Assembly (NCBI RefSeq): GCF_044647545.1 | Contig: NZ_CP172818.1 | Source: Escherichia coli | GTDB lineage: Bacteria > Pseudomonadota > Gammaproteobacteria > Enterobacterales > Enterobacteriaceae | Strand: one strand, 5' to 3' | DNA: 64,000 nt | Shown: in pieces, positions 1-40,871 of the stretch | How positions within the stretch are numbered: the first letter of the stretch is position 1 | How the letters are laid out: every line of letters begins with the position of its first letter | The notes under the pieces: generated by a model | The model's database searches: none | Seen by the model: the letters and a program-made list of their open reading frames with translations, nothing else | What the model was told of the DNA's origin: nothing | Program-made: the position numbers and the translations under genes

Positions 1-474
1 AATGAAAAGGTTGATGTGCCGATGATGCTGCGCGTTGTTGAGCGCGAGGCTCAGACTCTGAGTCAGAAAAAACAGACATTTACCTTTGAGATAGATAACG
101 GCCTCAAGGTGTCTGGCAACGAAGATCAGCTACGCAGTGCGATTTCGAACCTGGTCTATAACGCCGTGAATCATACGCCGGAAGGCACGCATATCACCGT
201 ACGCTGGCAGCGAGTGCCGCACGGTGCCGAATTTAGTGTTGAAGATAACGGACCGGGCATTGCACCGGAGCATATTCCGCGCCTGACCGAGCGTTTTTAT
301 CGCGTTGATAAAGCGCGTTCCCGGCAAACCGGTGGTAGCGGATTAGGGTTAGCGATCGTGAAACATGCGGTGAATCATCACGAAAGTCGCCTGAATATTG
401 AGAGTACAGTAGGAAAAGGTACACGTTTCAGTTTTGTTATCCCGGAACGTTTAATTGCCAAAAACAGCGATTAA
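1..474 (+). CDS. phoR: Phosphate regulon sensor histidine kinase PhoR, C-terminal part (5' end outside window)
   Basis: ORF 16..474 in frame from position 1; HATPase_c motifs ([16 protein letters not shown]); C-terminus ...ERLIAKNSD matches PhoR. Confidence 0.93.
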
Positions 475-501
475 TTCGCCTTTGTCATCTTTTATTGCCA
501 T

Positions 502-530
502 AAGCCAGCCGATGCTGGCTTATTTTCTTT
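502..530 (+). terminator. Rho-independent terminator after phoR
   Basis: Hairpin aagccagc/cgat/gctggctt followed by attttcttt. Confidence 0.7.
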
Positions 531-880
531 GCAGTCGAAATACGGGCGTTAGATTTTACAATGGTTGGTGATTTTTTGTTCGCATGATTAGCCATGTCTT
601 TTTCATTGAAATAGTGTTTTATACTGGTTGGTGATTTCTTATCGCTATATACCTCTGGTTTTTAGATCCCTTCTTGCTTTAAAACGTTATAAGCGTTTAA
701 ATTGCGCTTCAGGTGCTGTCATACTGACTGCATTTACGCGGTAAATCGAAAAACTATTCTTCGCCGCGCCTGGTTGGGAGTATTTCCCGCTAAAATTGTT
801 TAAATATACCGCTGTATCATCCCCAGGGATTGGCACAAAAATTTAACGTTACAACACCACATCCACAGGCAGTATGATTT

Positions 881-2200
881 ATGACCCATCAATTAAGATC
901 GCGCGATATCATCGCTCTGGGCTTTATGACATTTGCGTTGTTCGTCGGCGCAGGTAACATTATTTTCCCTCCAATGGTCGGCTTGCAGGCAGGCGAACAC
1001 GTCTGGACTGCGGCATTCGGCTTCCTCATTACTGCCGTTGGCCTACCGGTATTAACGGTAGTGGCGCTGGCAAAAGTTGGCGGCGGTGTTGACAGTCTCA
1101 GCACGCCAATTGGTAAAGTCGCTGGCGTACTGCTGGCAACAGTTTGTTACCTGGCGGTGGGGCCGCTTTTCGCTACGCCGCGTACAGCTACCGTTTCTTT
1201 TGAAGTGGGCATTGCGCCGCTGACGGGTGATTCCGCGCTGCCGCTGTTTATCTACAGCCTGGTTTATTTCGCTATCGTTATTCTGGTTTCGCTCTATCCG
1301 GGCAAGCTGCTGGATACCGTGGGCAACTTCCTTGCGCCGCTGAAAATTATCGCGCTGGTCATCCTGTCTGTTGCCGCAATTATCTGGCCGGCGGGTTCTA
1401 TCAGCACGGCGACTGAGGCTTATCAAAACGCTGCGTTTTCTAACGGCTTCGTCAACGGCTATCTGACCATGGATACGCTGGGCGCAATGGTGTTTGGTAT
1501 CGTTATTGTTAACGCGGCGCGTTCTCGTGGCGTTACCGAAGCGCGTCTGCTGACCCGTTATACCGTCTGGGCTGGCCTGATGGCGGGTGTTGGTCTGACT
1601 CTGCTGTATCTGGCGCTGTTCCGTCTGGGTTCAGACAGCGCGTCGCTGGTCGATCAGTCTGCAAACGGTGCGGCGATCCTGCATGCTTACGTTCAGCATA
1701 CCTTTGGCGGCGGCGGTAGCTTCCTGCTGGCGGCGTTAATCTTCATCGCCTGCCTGGTCACGGCGGTTGGCCTGACCTGTGCTTGTGCAGAATTCTTCGC
1801 CCAGTACGTACCGCTCTCTTATCGTACGCTGGTGTTTATCCTCGGCGGCTTCTCGATGGTGGTGTCTAACCTCGGTTTGAGCCAGCTGATTCAGATCTCT
1901 GTACCGGTGCTGACCGCCATTTATCCGCCGTGTATCGCACTGGTTGTATTAAGTTTTACACGCTCATGGTGGCATAATTCGACCCGCGTGATTGCTCCGC
2001 CGATGTTTATCAGCCTGCTTTTTGGTATTCTCGACGGGATCAAAGCATCTGCATTCAGCGATATCTTACCGTCCTGGGCGCAGCGTTTACCGCTGGCCGA
2101 ACAAGGTCTGGCGTGGTTAATGCCAACAGTGGTGATGGTGGTTTTGGCCATTATCTGGGATCGTGCGGCAGGTCGTCAGGTGACCTCCAGCGCTCACTAA
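881..2200 (+). CDS. brnQ: Branched-chain amino acid transport system carrier protein
   Basis: 439-aa polytopic membrane ORF, N-terminus [31 protein letters not shown]; conserved position after phoR. Confidence 0.95.
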
Positions 2201-2221
2201 ATCACTGAACATTTGTTTTAA

Positions 2222-2251
2222 CCACGGGGCTGCGATGCCCCGTGGTTTTTT
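2222..2251 (+). terminator. Rho-independent terminator after brnQ
   Basis: ccacggggc/tgcgat/gccccgtgg hairpin followed by tttttt. Confidence 0.8.
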
Positions 2252-2275
2252 ATTGTGTTGATGGGTTAGGAATTG

Positions 2276-3649
2276 ATGGAAAGTAAGAACAAGCTAAAGC
2301 GTGGGCTAAGTACCCGCCACATACGCTTTATGGCACTGGGTTCAGCAATTGGCACCGGGTTGTTTTACGGTTCGGCAGACGCCATCAAAATGGCCGGTCC
2401 GAGCGTGTTGTTGGCCTATATTATCGGTGGTGTCGCGGCGTATATCATTATGCGCGCGCTGGGGGAAATGTCGGTACATAACCCGGCCGCCAGCTCTTTC
2501 TCGCGTTATGCGCAGGAAAACCTCGGCCCGCTGGCAGGTTACATTACCGGCTGGACCTACTGCTTTGAAATCCTAATTGTCGCCATCGCCGATGTGACCG
2601 CTTTTGGTATCTATATGGGTGTCTGGTTTCCGACGGTGCCGCACTGGATTTGGGTACTGAGCGTGGTGCTGATCATTTGCGCCGTAAACCTGATGAGCGT
2701 GAAGGTATTCGGTGAGCTGGAGTTCTGGTTCTCGTTCTTTAAAGTCGCCACTATCATCATCATGATTGTCGCCGGTTTCGGCATCATCATCTGGGGAATT
2801 GGCAACGGCGGGCAACCGACCGGTATTCATAACCTGTGGAGCAACGGCGGCTTCTTCAGTAACGGCTGGCTTGGTATGGTGATGTCGTTGCAAATGGTGA
2901 TGTTTGCTTACGGTGGGATCGAAATTATCGGGATTACCGCCGGTGAAGCGAAAGATCCTGAGAAATCTATTCCGCGCGCGATTAACTCCGTGCCGATGCG
3001 TATTCTGGTGTTCTACGTCGGTACGCTGTTCGTCATTATGTCTATCTACCCGTGGAATCAGGTTGGCACTGCCGGTAGCCCGTTCGTACTGACGTTCCAG
3101 CATATGGGGATTACCTTTGCCGCCAGCATTCTTAACTTTGTTGTGCTGACCGCTTCGCTGTCGGCAATTAACAGTGACGTATTTGGCGTAGGCCGTATGC
3201 TCCACGGTATGGCAGAGCAGGGCAGCGCGCCAAAAATTTTCAGCAAAACCTCGCGTCGCGGTATTCCGTGGGTTACGGTGCTGGTGATGACTACCGCGCT
3301 GCTGTTTGCGGTGTATCTGAACTACATCATGCCGGAAAACGTCTTCCTGGTGATCGCTTCGCTGGCAACCTTCGCCACGGTGTGGGTGTGGATTATGATC
3401 CTGCTGTCGCAAATCGCCTTCCGTCGCCGTTTGCCGCCAGAAGAAGTTAAGGCGCTGAAATTTAAAGTGCCGGGTGGGGTCGCAACCACCATCTGCGGTT
3501 TGATTTTCCTGCTCTTTATTATCGGGTTGATTGGTTATCACCCTGATACGCGTATCTCGCTGTATGTCGGTTTCGCGTGGATTGTTGTGCTGTTGATTGG
3601 CTGGATGTTTAAGCGCCGCCACGATCGTCAGCTGGCTGAAAACCAGTAA
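2276..3649 (+). CDS. proY: Proline-specific permease (APC family amino acid transporter)
   Basis: ORF 2273..3649; trimmed to the ATG at 2276 (2273 is TTG); 457 aa, [32 protein letters not shown] amino-acid permease signature. Confidence 0.93.
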
Positions 3650-3720
3650 TCCTTGCGTTCTGTAAGCCGGTTCAGGAGGAAATCCTGATCCGGCTATTCC
3701 GAAAGTTATCCGCCCCCGTC

Positions 3721-3730
3721 CTCCTCCCCC
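3721..3730 (-). promoter_or_regulatory. Candidate MalT box upstream of malZ
   Basis: Minus-strand GGGGGAGGAG resembles the MalT box consensus GGGGA(T/G)GAGG; malZ is a known MalT-dependent gene. Confidence 0.4.
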
Positions 3731-3807
3731 AAATATCCTTCAGATGATGAGTGATCCTGCATTAGGCTATGGCAAGGTGATCAGATTTTCATCACAGGGG
3801 AATTATG

Positions 3808-5622
3808 ATGTTAAATGCATGGCATCTGCCGGTGCCCCCATTTGTTAAACAAAGCAAAGATCAACTGCTCATTACGCTGTGGCTGACGGGCGAAGACCCA
3901 CCGCAGCGCATTATGCTGCGTACAGAACACGACAACGAAGAAACGTCAGTAGCGATGCATAAGCAGCGCAGTCAGCCGCAGCCTGGCGTTACCGCATGGC
4001 GGGCGGCGATCGATCTCTCCAGCGGGCAACCTCGGCGGCGTTATAGTTTCAAATTACTGTGGCACGATCGCCAGCGTTGGTTTACACCGCAGGGCTTCAG
4101 CCGAATGCCGCCAGCACGACTGGAGCAGTTTGCTGTCGATGTCCCGGATATCGGCCCACAATGGGCTGCGGATCAGATTTTTTATCAGATCTTCCCTGAT
4201 CGTTTCGCCCGTAGTCTTCCTCGTGAAGCTGAACAGGATCATGTTTATTACCATCACGCAGCCGGACAAGAGATCATATTGCGTGACTGGGATGAACCGG
4301 TCACGGCGCAGGCGGGCGGATCAACGTTCTATGGCGGCGATCTGGACGGGATAAGCGAAAAACTGCCGTATCTGAAAAAACTTGGCGTGACGGCGCTGTA
4401 TCTCAATCCGGTGTTTAAAGCTCCCAGCGTACATAAATACGATACAGAGGATTATCGCCACGTCGATCCGCAGTTTGGCGGCGACGGAGCGTTGCTGCGT
4501 TTGCGACACCATACGCAGCAGCTGGGAATGCGGCTGGTGCTGGATGGCGTGTTTAACCACAGTGGCGATTCCCATGCCTGGTTTGACAGGCACAATCGTG
4601 GCACGGGTGGTGCTTGTCACAACCCCGAATCGCCCTGGCGCGACTGGTACTCGTTTAGTGACGATGGCACGGCGCTCGACTGGCTGGGCTATGCCAGCTT
4701 GCCGAAACTGGATTATCAGTCGGAAAGTCTGGTGAATGAAATTTATCGCGGGGAAGACAGTATTGTCCGCCACTGGCTGAAAGCGCCGTGGAATATGGAC
4801 GGCTGGCGGCTGGATGTGGTGCATATGCTGGGGGAAGCGGGTGGGGCGCGCAATAATTTGCAGCACGTTGCCGGGATCACCGAAGCGGCGAAAGAAACCC
4901 AGCCGGAAGCGTATATCGTTGGAGAGCATTTTGGCGATGCACGGCAATGGTTACAGGCCGATGTGGAAGATGCCGCCATGAACTATCGTGGCTTCACATT
5001 CCCGTTGTGGGGATTTCTTGCCAATACCGACATCTCTTATGATCCGCAGCAAATTGACGCCCAAACCTGTATGGCCTGGATGGATAATTACCGCGCCGGA
5101 CTTTCTCATCAACAGCAACTGCGTATGTTTAATCAGCTCGATAGCCACGATACTGCGCGATTTAAAACGCTGCTCGGTCGGGATATTGCGCGCCTGCCGC
5201 TGGCGGTGGTCTGGTTGTTCACCTGGCCTGGTGTACCGTGCATTTATTACGGTGATGAAGTGGGACTGGATGGTAAAAACGATCCGTTTTGCCGTAAACC
5301 GTTCCCCTGGCAGGTGGAAAAGCAGGATACGGCGTTATTCGCGCTGTACCAGCGAATGATTGCGCTGCGTAAGAAAAGTCAGGCGCTGCGTCGTGGCGGC
5401 TGTCAGGTGCTGTATGCGGAAGATAACGTGGTGGTATTTGGCCGCGTGCTGAATCAGCAGCGTGTACTGGTGGCAATCAACCGTGGAGAAGCCTGTGAAG
5501 TGGTGCTACCCGCGTCACCGTTGCTTAATGTTGCGCAATGGCAACGCAAAGAAGGCCATGGGCAACTGACAGACGGGATTCTGGCTTTGCCTGCCATTTC
5601 GGCTACGGTGTGGATCAACTAA
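3808..5622 (+). CDS. malZ: Maltodextrin glucosidase (GH13)
   Basis: ORF 3805..5622 begins [10 protein letters not shown]; second ATG taken as start (604 aa); GH13 motifs [15 protein letters not shown]; C-terminus intact, TAA at 5620-5622. Confidence 0.93.
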
Positions 5623-5659
5623 CTGTTTTATTTATTACGTCGTATCACCACCCTACACT

Positions 5660-6734
<1,075 letters not shown>

Positions 6735-6735
<1 letters not shown>

Positions 6736-7361
6736 CAGTTGCGCATCCCAGAGGATAAGAAGGAAGAAGATAAAAGTGGGAGAAGCGCCTTGCGTGACGC
6801 CTGCGCCATCATCCGCGGATAAAACTGCCAGAAGCGGGTTTCGAGGGCGGCATAATGTGCGTTTAAATCGTACCAGGAGTCACGCAGGGCATCCAGACGT
6901 GGGCGACGGCTTGCCATGCCGTTTAACACGTTCTGGATGAAATCCATATCGCGATAGCGCACCAGCCACTGCTCTGACCACAAGTAATTGTTCAGATTGA
7001 TAAAACGTGGCGGTGAGTCCGGCAAAATCGTCATCACTTGCTCGCGGGCATAACAGACAAATTCCTGTAGCGGAAAGTCCGGCGACAGCTGCGACCAGTG
7101 GCGGGAAAGAAAGTGATCCCACATGACATCCAGCGTAATAGGCGCAACGCGGCGCGTTTCACTACGAAACCATTCCCGTGCTTCGCGGACTTCCGGCAGA
7201 TTGTCGGTTAGTACATCAATGCGCCGATGCATATGAATGCCAGCCACGACGTCGGGCGGAAAACTTTCTTCAGGATTTCCGCGTACGAAATCAGCCAGTA
7301 AATTGCCGGAAAGCGAGCTTTCCGCGAGATGGGCTAAATGCAGGTGAGCTAAAAAATTCAT
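6735..7361 (-). CDS. acpH: Acyl carrier protein phosphodiesterase; ORF here is 208 aa, about 15 aa longer at the C-terminus than the 193 aa I recall
   Basis: N-terminus [32 protein letters not shown]; ORF continues past ...ASRKAL as [15 protein letters not shown] to TGA at 6735-6737, running into the AT-rich block. Confidence 0.85.
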
Positions 7362-7453: not shown

Positions 7454-8524
7454 ATGCGCGTTACCGATTTCTCCTTTGAATTGCCCGAATCCCTGATTGC
7501 CCACTATCCCATGCCTGAACGCAGTAGCTGTCGTTTACTGTCGCTGGACGGGCCGACGGGCGCGCTGACGCACGGTACTTTCACCGATTTACTCGATAAG
7601 CTCAACCCCGGCGATCTTCTGGTTTTTAATAATACCCGCGTGATCCCGGCGCGTCTGTTTGGGCGTAAAGCCAGCGGCGGCAAGATTGAAGTGCTGGTTG
7701 AGCGGATGCTCGACGACAAACGCATTCTTGCGCATATTCGCGCCTCGAAAGCGCCAAAACCTGGCGCAGAACTGTTGCTGGGCGATGACGAAAGTATTAA
7801 CGCAACAATGACCGCGCGCCACGGCGCACTGTTTGAAGTCGAATTTAATGATGATCGTTCGGTACTGGATATCCTCAACAGCATCGGCCATATGCCGCTG
7901 CCGCCGTATATCGACCGTCCGGACGAAGACGCTGACCGCGAACTTTATCAAACCGTTTATAGCGAAAAACCGGGCGCGGTTGCAGCCCCGACCGCTGGTC
8001 TGCATTTTGACGAACCTTTGCTGGAAAAATTACGCGCCAAAGGCGTGGAGATGGCGTTTGTCACCCTGCACGTTGGTGCGGGCACCTTCCAGCCGGTGCG
8101 CGTCGACACCATTGAAGATCACATCATGCACTCGGAATACGCTGAAGTACCGCAGGATGTGGTAGACGCGGTACTGGCGGCGAAAGCGCGCGGTAACCGG
8201 GTGATTGCGGTTGGCACCACCTCGGTACGTTCGCTGGAAAGCGCGGCCCAGGCGGCGAAAAACGATCTCATCGAACCGTTCTTTGACGATACCCAAATCT
8301 TTATCTATCCCGGCTTCCAGTACAAAGTGGTCGATGCGCTGGTGACGAACTTCCACCTTCCTGAATCGACGCTGATTATGCTGGTTTCGGCATTTGCCGG
8401 CTATCAACACACTATGAACGCCTATAAAGCGGCGGTAGAAGAGAAATATCGCTTTTTTAGTTACGGTGATGCGATGTTTATCACGTACAATCCGCAGGCA
8501 ATTAATGAGCGCGTCGGGGAGTAA
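7454..8524 (+). CDS. queA: S-adenosylmethionine:tRNA ribosyltransferase-isomerase
   Basis: 356 aa, [29 protein letters not shown]; upstream of tgt as in the queA-tgt-yajC-secDF operon. Confidence 0.96.
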
Positions 8525-13046: not shown

Positions 13047-13394
13047 ATGGCTATCATCCCAAAAAACTATGCGCGCTTAGAAAGCGGCTATCGCGAAAAA
13101 GCATTAAAAATCTATCCGTGGGTCTGCGGTCGCTGTTCCCGCGAGTTTGTTTATTCCAACCTGCGTGAACTTACCGTTCACCACATTGATCACGACCATA
13201 CCAATAACCCGGAAGATGGCAGTAACTGGGAATTGCTTTGTCTCTATTGCCACGATCATGAGCATTCGAAATATACCGAAGCGGATCAGTATGGTACGAC
13301 CGTTATCGCAGGGGAAGATGCGCAGAAAGATGTCGGTGAAGCGAAGTACAACCCATTCGCTGACCTGAAAGCGATGATGAACAAGAAGAAGTGA
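13047..13394 (+). CDS. yajD: HNH nuclease family protein YajD
   Basis: 115 aa with HNH motif (CGRC...HHIDHDHTNN...CLYCHDHEH). Confidence 0.9.
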   Translation: MAIIPKNYARLESGYREKALKIYPWVCGRCSREFVYSNLRELTVHHIDHDHTNNPEDGSNWELLCLYCHDHEHSKYTEADQYGTTVIAGEDAQKDVGEAKYNPFADLKAMMNKKK

Positions 13395-13395
13395 A

Positions 13396-13420
13396 AATGC
13401 CGGATATGAAATCCGGCATT
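13396..13420. terminator. Bidirectional hairpin terminator between convergent yajD and tsx
   Basis: Perfect inverted repeat aatgccggat/atgaa/atccggcatt. Confidence 0.7.
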
Positions 13421-20433: not shown

Positions 20434-20485
20434 GCTGCCACTCCTCATGAATAATTTCTTAAGCATAGCAGGAGTGGAGTAGGGA

Positions 20486-23719: not shown

Positions 23720-25168
23720 ATGAAGTTTATCATTAAATTGTTCCCGGAAATCACCATCAAAAGCCAATCTGTGCGCTTGCGCTTTATAAAAATCCTTACC
23801 GGGAACATTCGTAACGTTTTAAAGCACTATGATGAGACGCTCGCTGTCGTCCGCCACTGGGATAACATCGAAGTTCGCGCAAAAGATGAAAACCAGCGTC
23901 TGGCTATTCGCGACGCCCTGACCCGTATTCCGGGTATCCACCATATTCTCGAAGTCGAAGACGTGCCGTTTACCGACATGCACGATATTTTCGAAAAAGC
24001 GTTGGTTCAGTATCGCGATCAGCTGGAAGGGAAAACCTTTTGCGTACGCGTGAAGCGCCGTGGCAAACATGATTTTAGCTCGATTGATGTGGAACGTTAC
24101 GTCGGCGGCGGTTTAAATCAGCATATTGAGTCCGCGCGCGTGAAGCTGACCAATCCGGATGTGACTGTCCATCTGGAAGTGGAAGACGATCGTCTTCTGC
24201 TGATTAAAGGCCGCTACGAAGGTATTGGCGGTTTCCCGATTGGTACCCAGGAAGATGTGCTGTCGCTCATTTCTGGTGGTTTCGACTCCGGCGTTTCCAG
24301 TTATATGTTGATGCGTCGCGGATGTCGTGTGCATTACTGCTTCTTTAACCTTGGCGGCGCGGCGCATGAAATTGGCGTGCGTCAGGTAGCGCATTATCTG
24401 TGGAACCGCTTTGGCAGCTCCCACCGCGTGCGTTTTGTCGCTATTAATTTCGAACCGGTCGTCGGGGAAATTCTCGAGAAAATCGACGACGGTCAGATGG
24501 GCGTTATCCTCAAACGTATGATGGTGCGTGCCGCGTCCAAAGTGGCAGAACGTTACGGCGTTCAGGCGCTGGTTACCGGTGAAGCGCTCGGCCAGGTGTC
24601 CAGCCAGACGCTGACCAACCTGCGCTTGATTGATAACGTCTCCGATACGCTGATCCTGCGTCCGCTGATCTCTTACGACAAAGAGCACATCATCAACCTG
24701 GCTCGCCAGATTGGCACCGAAGACTTTGCCCGCACGATGCCGGAATATTGCGGCGTGATTTCCAAAAGCCCGACGGTGAAAGCGGTTAAATCGAAGATTG
24801 AAGCGGAAGAAGAGAAGTTTGACTTCAGCATTCTCGATAAAGTGGTTGAGGAAGCGAATAACGTTGATATCCGCGAAATCGCCCAGCAGACCGAGCAGGA
24901 AGTGGTGGAAGTGGAAACCGTCAATGGCTTCGGCCCGAACGACGTGATCCTCGATATCCGTTCTATCGATGAACAGGAAGATAAGCCACTGAAAGTCGAA
25001 GGGATTGATGTGGTTTCTCTGCCGTTCTATAAACTGAGCACCAAATTTGGCGATCTCGACCAGAGCAAAACCTGGCTGTTGTGGTGTGAGCGCGGGGTGA
25101 TGAGCCGCCTGCAGGCGCTCTATCTGCGCGAGCAGGGCTTTAACAATGTGAAGGTGTATCGCCCGTAA
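23720..25168 (+). CDS. thiI: tRNA 4-thiouridine synthase ThiI
   Basis: 482 aa; THUMP, PP-loop SGGFDS and C-terminal rhodanese domain with catalytic Cys (LWCERG). Confidence 0.96.
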
Positions 25169-39596: not shown

Positions 39597-40871
39597 ATGA
39601 CAGATAAACGCAAAGATGGCTCAGGCAAATTGCTGTATTGCTCTTTTTGCGGCAAAAGCCAGCATGAAGTGCGCAAGCTGATTGCCGGTCCATCCGTGTA
39701 TATCTGCGACGAATGTGTTGATTTATGTAACGACATCATTCGCGAAGAGATTAAAGAAGTTGCACCGCATCGTGAACGCAGTGCGCTACCAACGCCGCAT
39801 GAAATTCGCAACCACCTGGACGATTACGTTATCGGTCAGGAACAGGCGAAAAAAGTGCTGGCGGTCGCGGTATACAACCACTACAAACGTCTGCGCAACG
39901 GAGATACCAGCAATGGCGTCGAGTTGGGCAAAAGTAACATTCTGCTGATCGGTCCGACCGGTTCCGGTAAAACGCTGCTGGCCGAAACGCTGGCGCGCCT
40001 GCTGGACGTTCCGTTCACCATGGCTGACGCAACCACGCTGACCGAAGCCGGTTATGTGGGCGAAGACGTTGAAAACATCATTCAGAAGCTGTTGCAGAAG
40101 TGCGATTACGACGTACAGAAAGCGCAGCGCGGGATTGTCTACATCGATGAAATCGACAAGATTTCTCGTAAGTCAGACAACCCGTCCATTACCCGAGACG
40201 TTTCCGGTGAAGGCGTACAGCAGGCACTGTTAAAACTGATCGAAGGTACGGTAGCTGCTGTTCCGCCGCAAGGTGGGCGTAAACATCCGCAACAGGAATT
40301 CTTGCAGGTTGATACCTCTAAGATCCTGTTTATCTGTGGCGGTGCGTTTGCCGGTCTGGATAAAGTGATTTCCCATCGTGTAGAAACCGGTTCCGGCATT
40401 GGTTTTGGCGCGACGGTAAAAGCGAAGTCCGACAAAGCAAGCGAAGGTGAACTGCTGGCGCAGGTTGAACCGGAAGATCTGATCAAGTTTGGTCTGATCC
40501 CTGAGTTCATTGGTCGTCTGCCGGTTGTCGCAACGTTGAATGAACTGAGCGAAGAAGCTCTGATTCAGATCCTCAAAGAGCCGAAAAACGCCCTGACCAA
40601 GCAGTATCAGGCACTGTTTAATCTGGAAGGCGTGGATCTGGAATTCCGTGACGAGGCGCTGGATGCTATCGCTAAGAAAGCGATGGCGCGTAAAACCGGT
40701 GCCCGTGGCCTGCGTTCCATCGTAGAAGCCGCACTGCTCGATACCATGTACGATCTGCCGTCCATGGAAGACGTCGAAAAAGTGGTTATCGACGAATCGG
40801 TAATTGATGGTCAAAGCAAGCCGTTGCTGATTTATGGCAAGCCGGAAGCGCAACAGGCATCTGGTGAATAA
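39597..40871 (+). CDS. clpX: ATP-dependent Clp protease ATP-binding subunit ClpX
   Basis: 424 aa, zinc-binding N-domain CSFCGK...CDEC, Walker A GPTGSGKT. Confidence 0.97.

Follow-up and report, generated by a model that had tools for sequence, protein, structure and literature searches.

Does an Escherichia coli strain produce a lengthened AcpH protein, or is the sequence record itself at fault? In the window, i.e., the whole stretch of 64,000 nucleotides that was analysed, the minus-strand reading frame of acpH (6735..7361) encodes 208 amino acids, which end in ...ASRKAL followed by 15 extra residues. In MG1655 (b0404) and FDAARGOS_497, the reference gene comprises 582 nt and encodes 193 amino acids ending in ...RKAL*, which bears out the sequence-only reading that the frame runs about 15 codons past its expected end. 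The extra codons are read from a block of A/T-rich DNA located between malZ and acpH. The 208-amino acid AcpH, a missing gene for a protein of 481 amino acids and the A/T-rich block are one event. With a probability of roughly 80%, the block does not stem from biology but from a corruption of the sequence record, produced by a technical or in-silico process that we infer, and the extension of AcpH is a by-product of it.

The acpH reading frame and its product

The acyl carrier protein phosphodiesterase AcpH (b0404/yajB; NF007466, PF04336) is a non-canonical HD-family phosphodiesterase. Its place in this family has been described, and the enzyme is non-essential and aggregation-prone and has an unclear cellular role (PMC8557913). 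Over residues 1-193, the window protein shares 100% identity with AcpH of FDAARGOS_497 and 99% with AcpH of MG1655/K-12. The NCBIfam equivalog model NF007466, which has 193 positions and a cut-off of 331 bits, matches with 429 bits, protein residues 1-193 being aligned to profile positions 1-193/193, and the Pfam domain ACP_PD (PF04336) covers residues 1-184 (E = 2e-59). This full-length equivalog match above the cut-off makes the protein a member of the AcpH family. Furthermore, residues H6, H8, H11, D24, H45 and D49 fall in invariant alignment columns, and the HD-type conserved residues as well as the overall sequence are those of the characterised E. coli AcpH. The synteny is also that of the known E. 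coli gene, acpH being placed between malZ and queA-tgt-yajC-secD. A sequence search returned no solved AcpH structure.

Unlike known AcpH proteins, the window protein carries 15 additional C-terminal residues, which come from non-native sequence. It therefore departs from the canonical enterobacterial AcpH, which has a length of 193 amino acids and ends in ...RKAL, and the tail lies outside the AcpH family model, which stops at residue 193. The tail is Ser-rich and mildly hydrophobic and raises the computed mass of AcpH from 22.9 kDa to 24.5 kDa (+1.6 kDa). At the nucleotide level, homology to native acpH begins at window position 6784. The window reads GAGA at 6780-6783, whereas the native plus strand reads TCAG at this site, which comprises the stop codon and the wobble base of Leu193. 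As a result of this change, Leu193 stays Leu and the stop codon becomes a Leu codon (CTC). The gag at 6780-6782, which had been proposed to be a sense codon in the place of the native stop, indeed replaces the native plus-strand TCA. The length of the run-on is what chance would give: shuffles of the downstream sequence resulted in a median of 11-14 codons, and the probability of a run-on of at least 15 codons was ~0.4-0.5.

A comparison of the C-termini of AcpH homologs, which the sequence-only reading had put forward as a check, pointed in the same direction as its length estimate. Among the best 120 of 1,197 homologs, nearly all proteins are 193 amino acids long and cover 93% of the query (= 193/208), a few are singleton length variants of the frameshift type, and none carries the 15-residue tail. 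A natural stop-loss allele, i.e., a point mutation in the acpH stop codon of an otherwise native locus, was considered, and rare AcpH variants with altered C-termini exist in public data (P0003, P0008, P0012 and P0079). However, the tail is present in none of these variants, and the exact 208-amino acid protein is not on record in a public collection of 153 billion gene positions. Moreover, the change is not confined to the stop codon, but affects all of TCAG, and instead of a retained native 3' flank, the whole downstream flank is rewritten. A natural stop-loss allele can thus practically be dismissed.

One of the homologs, the AcpH protein of Shigella dysenteriae (P0004, 209 amino acids), is a natural variant in which RRIDVSTY is duplicated in tandem (x2) within the protein, following residue 45. 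This duplication adjoins the conserved HD-type residues and is unrelated to the tail of the window protein.

The malZ-acpH interval in the window and in related genomes

The genes in the window are arranged in the order proY, malZ, the block, acpH, queA, tgt, yajC and secDF, and the window extends to acrAB. The features around the block are summarized in Table 1. Outside of positions 5623-6783, the window is nearly identical to E. coli genomes of the ST648 type, e.g., FDAARGOS_497 and ECONIH1: positions 1-5622 show 0 mismatches to FDAARGOS_497, and over the 57 kb of positions 6784-64000, the two sequences are separated by 2 SNPs and 2 small deletions. The block is the sole compositional anomaly in the window. 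It begins at the base directly after the malZ stop codon and consists of 60% A, 28% T, 8% G and 4% C, with runs of A of up to 32 nt.

Table 1. Features at the malZ-acpH locus of the window.
Feature	Position	Strand	Basis or remark
malZ (maltodextrin glucosidase), intact	3805..5622	+	ORF list, annotation; stop TAA at 5620-5622
Anomalous block, 1,161 nt	5623..6783	.	In place of the 1,656-nt native islet
Left edge of the block	5623..5675	.	Native malZ 3' flank minus 'AGCAT' and four single G's; 0 substitutions
Clearest collinear stretch	5741..5892	.	Local alignment to the hypothetical gene, reference 6787-6948
Poly-A-rich core	6021..6462	.	TRF, homopolymer list, sub-block placement
Right edge of the block	6640..6783	.	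GC recovers to 20-40%
New acpH stop TGA (plus-strand tca)	6735-6737	-	ORF list
15 extra sense codons of acpH	6738..6782	-	Read from the block; codon 6780-6782 in the place of the native stop
acpH, native part, codons 1-193	6783..7361	-	Protein identical to FDAARGOS_497 AcpH
acpH codon 193	6783-6785	-	CTT for CTC, synonymous, Leu kept
queA, intact	7454..8524	+	Normal synteny onward: queA, tgt, yajC, secD

In FDAARGOS_497, malZ and acpH are separated by an accessory islet of 1,656 nt with a GC content of 37%. The islet contains one gene (L003:6691-8136, plus strand), which encodes the hypothetical protein WP_022645275.1 of 481 amino acids and converges on acpH; the spacing between acpH and this gene is about 20 nt in the islet-bearing lineage. 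The islet is absent from K-12, in which the stop codons of malZ and acpH are only 4 nt apart. A malZ 3' flank of the islet type is present in ~1,000 of 5,426 complete E. coli genomes, which corresponds to about a fifth. The last two codons of acpH are TTA-TAA in K-12 and CTC-TGA in the islet type, and the natural right boundary of the islet falls within these two codons.

In the window, the block displaces the malZ 3' flank, the gene encoding the 481-amino acid protein, and the stop codon of acpH together with 1 adjoining nt. It shares its position and the order of its surviving bases with the malZ-acpH islet found in ST648-type and other E. coli strains. Unlike the native islet, it has a GC content of roughly 5-12% instead of 37%, with 100-nt windows down to 1-5%, it is 495 nt shorter, and the open reading frame for the 481-amino acid protein is destroyed; the longest open reading frame inside the block has 42 amino acids.

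The loss of a native acpH terminator, which the sequence-only reading had suspected, is not supported by the native locus. The two stop codons in K-12 lie too close together to accommodate a terminator, and a terminator consensus scan of the native locus returned 4 weak sites compared with 2.8 expected by chance; 0 sites were found in the window. Just 3' of malZ, the native sequence can form a hairpin (CAGCCCTGACA...TGTCAGGGCTG; L001:1356-1403), which is a plausible malZ terminator. This hairpin is destroyed at window positions 5640-5680, where the left arm is short of G's and the right arm is missing.

Collinearity of the block with the native islet

Aligned globally over its full length, the block scored 1009.5 against the islet. 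The control alignments scored 725+-17 for dinucleotide-preserving shuffles of the native sequence, 800+-16 for shuffles of the block and 742 for the reversed native sequence. When the block was divided into thirds, the left third had a z-value of 9-10 against the shuffles and a score of 303, compared with a maximum of 198 for native segments from the wrong place, and the centre third had a z-value of 5-6.4. The right third still reached a z-value of ~5, yet native segments from the wrong place scored equally high. Independent placement of sub-blocks of 80 nt kept their order along the islet (rho 0.53, p 0.004; controls -0.21 and 0.01).

The likeness can also be followed along the block. The left 50 nt are nearly identical to the native islet, and the best match of the left edge (5623..5675) among the 5,426 complete genomes is 90.3% identical and gapped. 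The stretch 5741..5892 is plainly homologous to the islet; its A/T skeleton is retained, and the G/C positions are deleted or swapped for A or T. The poly-A-rich core maps to the region around reference 7510-7700, in which the native gene for WP_022645275.1 contains an A-rich internal repeat (AAAAAATTGCG x4). At the right end, sequence segments were ranked against 698 tiles, which represent a 70-kb reference: the expected native tile ranked 3/698 for the last 144 nt (6640-6783) and 31/698 for the last 69 nt, which encode the AcpH tail (6715-6783). By these alignments, the left and the centre of the block are firmly shown to be derived from the native islet, whose order they follow in degraded form. 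For the right end, the data are suggestive only of a derivation from the 3' end of the islet, and they lend weak support to a putative islet origin of the rightmost ~70 nt, from which the tail is translated.

The sequence-only reading had assumed that a junction removed the native acpH stop codon together with the 3' flank. The stop codon is indeed lost at the edge of the block, and the flank is not intact; however, there is no simple junction or insertion, since the block reproduces, collinearly and heavily degraded, the islet that belongs to this locus. The same observation bears on the idea that an unrelated A/T-rich segment of foreign origin, either eukaryote-like or mobile, was joined between malZ and acpH and thereby removed the stop codon and the 3' flank of acpH. 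The base composition and the poly-A runs superficially resemble intergenic DNA of the Plasmodium or Dictyostelium type, and the sequence changes abruptly at 6783/6784. However, horizontal transfer would bring in an unrelated sequence with two sharp junctions, a donor or further copies, and coding or mobility functions. The block is instead collinear with the very islet that it replaces, and its left junction shows a gradual decay of the native sequence and no breakpoint.

Database searches for the block point in the same direction. A sensitive blastn search against 5,426 complete E. coli genomes, PLSDB plasmids and phages returned chance low-complexity matches only. The low-complexity filter of blastn weakens the search for the poly-A core, and the complex parts of the block were used for exact-pattern scans: three exact 26-33-mers, which cover complex parts and the junction, had 0 matches in genome, metagenome and viral contigs. 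The block contains no open reading frame above 42 amino acids, and it yielded neither a tRNA nor an Rfam match nor any mobile-element feature. A repeat scan of the block (TRF) identified A-rich low complexity only. Taken together, a foreign origin of the block is scarcely credible. An arrangement of eukaryotic intron and exon at the right end of the block, comprising a polypyrimidine tract, a 'cag' and a purine-rich 'exon', was also considered and was dropped in view of the collinearity with the islet.

Spectrum of changes and small deletions outside the block

The alignment of the block with the native islet reveals how the four bases fared. Native A is kept in 86% of cases and deleted in 12%; native T is kept in 60%, changed to A in 10% and deleted in 30%. 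G is kept in 25%, changed to A in 23% and deleted in 48%, and C is kept in 15%, changed to A in 23% and deleted in 56%. In total, the alignment contains 528 deletions and 33 insertions. The more frequent a base is in the native islet, the more often it survives, and substitutions favour the commonest one, A: about 80% of the aligned substitutions place an A of the block opposite a native base other than A. Transversions of the types C>A and T>A are present. The retention of G/C peaks beside the flanks (first 100 nt, 21/43; last two bins, 19/42 and 15/29) and amounts to 0-20% in between. Overall, more than 700 changes accumulate in the islet interval of 1.66 kb, compared with 4 changes in 62 kb of flanking sequence. 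Calculated from these counts, the local excess of change is roughly four orders of magnitude, in a lineage whose divergence is very recent. The spectrum is unlike mutation and matches no known mutational process, and we know of no bacterial process that yields such a spectrum.

The confinement of the changes to one locus is a feature that the block shares with targeted hypermutation systems such as deaminase editing and diversity-generating retroelements (DGRs), and both models were examined and rejected. Hypermutation by a deaminase (C>T, G>A) is a transition-only model. When the sequences were coded as purines and pyrimidines, the alignment of the block to the native islet scored 429, which is below the shuffle mean of 446+-9, and the transversions and the 528 deletions are likewise at odds with this model. 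DGRs act on targets of ~100 nt, depend on a template repeat and a reverse transcriptase, and do not cause the loss of a third of the bases. A DGR-like, adenine-directed model, which the prevalence of A's in the block opposite other native bases had suggested, is ruled out by the scale of the changes, by the deletions, and by the locus, which contains neither a template repeat nor a reverse transcriptase. The view that the block is a naturally diverged or decayed allele was rejected as well: over 62 kb, the flanks differ from the ST648 genomes by only 4 changes, and the 5,426 complete genomes contain no intermediate allele.

Two micro-deletions are located elsewhere in the window. A 4-nt deletion lies directly after the yajD stop codon at window ~13391-13397 (native TGATAAAAAATG, window TGAAAATG), upstream of a hairpin (ATGCCGGAT...ATCCGGCAT). 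Not one of the 5,426 complete E. coli genomes shares it; full-length matches there reach 95.3% identity at best and are gapped. A 2-nt deletion is found in the yajO-dxs intergenic region at window ~20444-20448, by the yajO Shine-Dalgarno sequence (native CCTACCATG, window CCTCATG), and is also unmatched in the 5,426 complete genomes. Both record-specific changes are non-coding and consist of deletions only, as is the case at the left edge of the block. They would also fit real mutations that were filtered by selection.

These observations have to be weighed against the view that the block is real DNA, which arose either by extreme erosion of the islet in vivo or by deliberate replacement with a designed or synthetic degenerate sequence. 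The sequence is internally consistent, as malZ is intact and AcpH has all 193 native residues and a proper stop codon. The boundaries of the block coincide with the ends of two genes, as selection against changes inside these genes would give, and the other indels of the record are all non-coding. The tail would also be tolerable, acpH being non-essential (PMC8557913). However, malZ is non-essential as well as acpH, so selection could not have kept the edges clean to the base in such a short time. Furthermore, the spectrum described above, with its A-directed transversions and about 530 deletions, has no known counterpart in bacteria, the transition-only deaminase model fails, and the contrast between the islet interval and the flanks would have to be accounted for. 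No cassette, scar or recombination-site sequences were found at the block, and the block occurs in no other record searched. It is therefore unlikely that the block is real. It is equally unlikely that a cell exists which makes the 24.5-kDa AcpH, has lost the hypothetical gene and carries an A/T-rich tract between malZ and acpH; should it exist, a growth phenotype would not be expected, as inferred from the non-essentiality of acpH.

A real erosion of G/C in the chromosome of a recently diverged ST648-type E. coli, confined to a single horizontally acquired islet and without precedent, is, by itself, very improbable. If it were true, it would be remarkable and would imply an unknown targeted mutagenic mechanism or a mechanism that degrades xenogeneic DNA; it would have left a tract of ~5% GC, destroyed the accessory gene and removed the stop codon of acpH. 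At face value, the altered acpH would amount to a minor stop-loss allele, the enzyme being non-essential and its role unclear (PMC8557913).

Probable corruption of the sequence record

The perfection of the flanks, the spectrum of changes, the exact agreement of the interval with the islet and the two unique deletions together lead to the conclusion that the sequence record is most likely corrupted. The block combines the features that distinguish a corrupted record: it is collinear with the true sequence, its error rate is far above that of the flanks, its spectrum is non-mutational, and it occurs in one record. Judged from the comparison with K-12, the interval that appears to be corrupted is equal to the whole accessory islet.

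In the proposed scenario, the source would be an E. coli of the ST648 type that in reality carries the 1.66-kb islet between malZ and acpH, and an error process would have rewritten the whole islet interval in the record. This process would drop bases, so that deletions far outnumber insertions, and, when unsure, would emit the locally commonest base, A. It would be most accurate beside the good flanks, behaving like a decoder that is anchored by them. The rewritten interval would have taken in the last 4 nt of acpH, i.e., the wobble base and the stop codon, because the natural right boundary of the islet lies in the last two acpH codons. The acpH stop codon would thereby have become CTC, and the frame would run on for a chance length of 15 codons to the next TGA. 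Candidate routes to such a record may be neural consensus calling or polishing of a region in which the read support was abnormal, consensus building guided by a reference, or a rewrite made deliberately or by a model.

Localised failures of consensus calling and polishing in assemblies and degenerate, low-complexity output of sequence models form a general class of artefacts. Like these, the block has perfect flanks around a garbled but collinear interior, deletions that far exceed insertions, a collapse toward the commonest base, and an occurrence that is unique to one record. Unlike a named case, its pattern is tied to no specific program or platform. A literature search yielded no documented polishing artefact of this kind and no specific tool that gives exactly this spectrum, and the link of the block to neural consensus callers is our own reasoning.

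For AcpH, this means that a C-terminally extended protein is encoded in the record as written, in agreement with the sequence-only reading; that a strain makes this longer AcpH is doubtful, however, given a block that bears the marks of a corrupted record and is absent from all public collections searched. The block, the 208-amino acid AcpH and the missing islet gene should not be annotated as biology until sequencing reads confirm them. Misreadings to be avoided are those of a novel insertion, of eukaryote-like DNA, and of a fusion or extension allele. Similar cases can be recognized by comparing a suspicious segment with the nearest genome, by testing its collinearity with the DNA that it replaces, and by inspecting the survival of the bases and the indel spectrum.

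Further observations in the window

The two SNPs that distinguish the window from FDAARGOS_497 are located at position 24626 (T for C) and position 40613 (A for G). The first of these appears to be common to the closest genomes such as ECONIH1, which has a slightly higher bit score. Both SNPs are ordinary strain-level variation. In the native islet, the gene encoding WP_022645275.1 is uncharacterised, and its product had no significant match in NCBIfam, Pfam, PADLOC and PHROGs. This gene may be more interesting than the artefact that has taken its place in the record.
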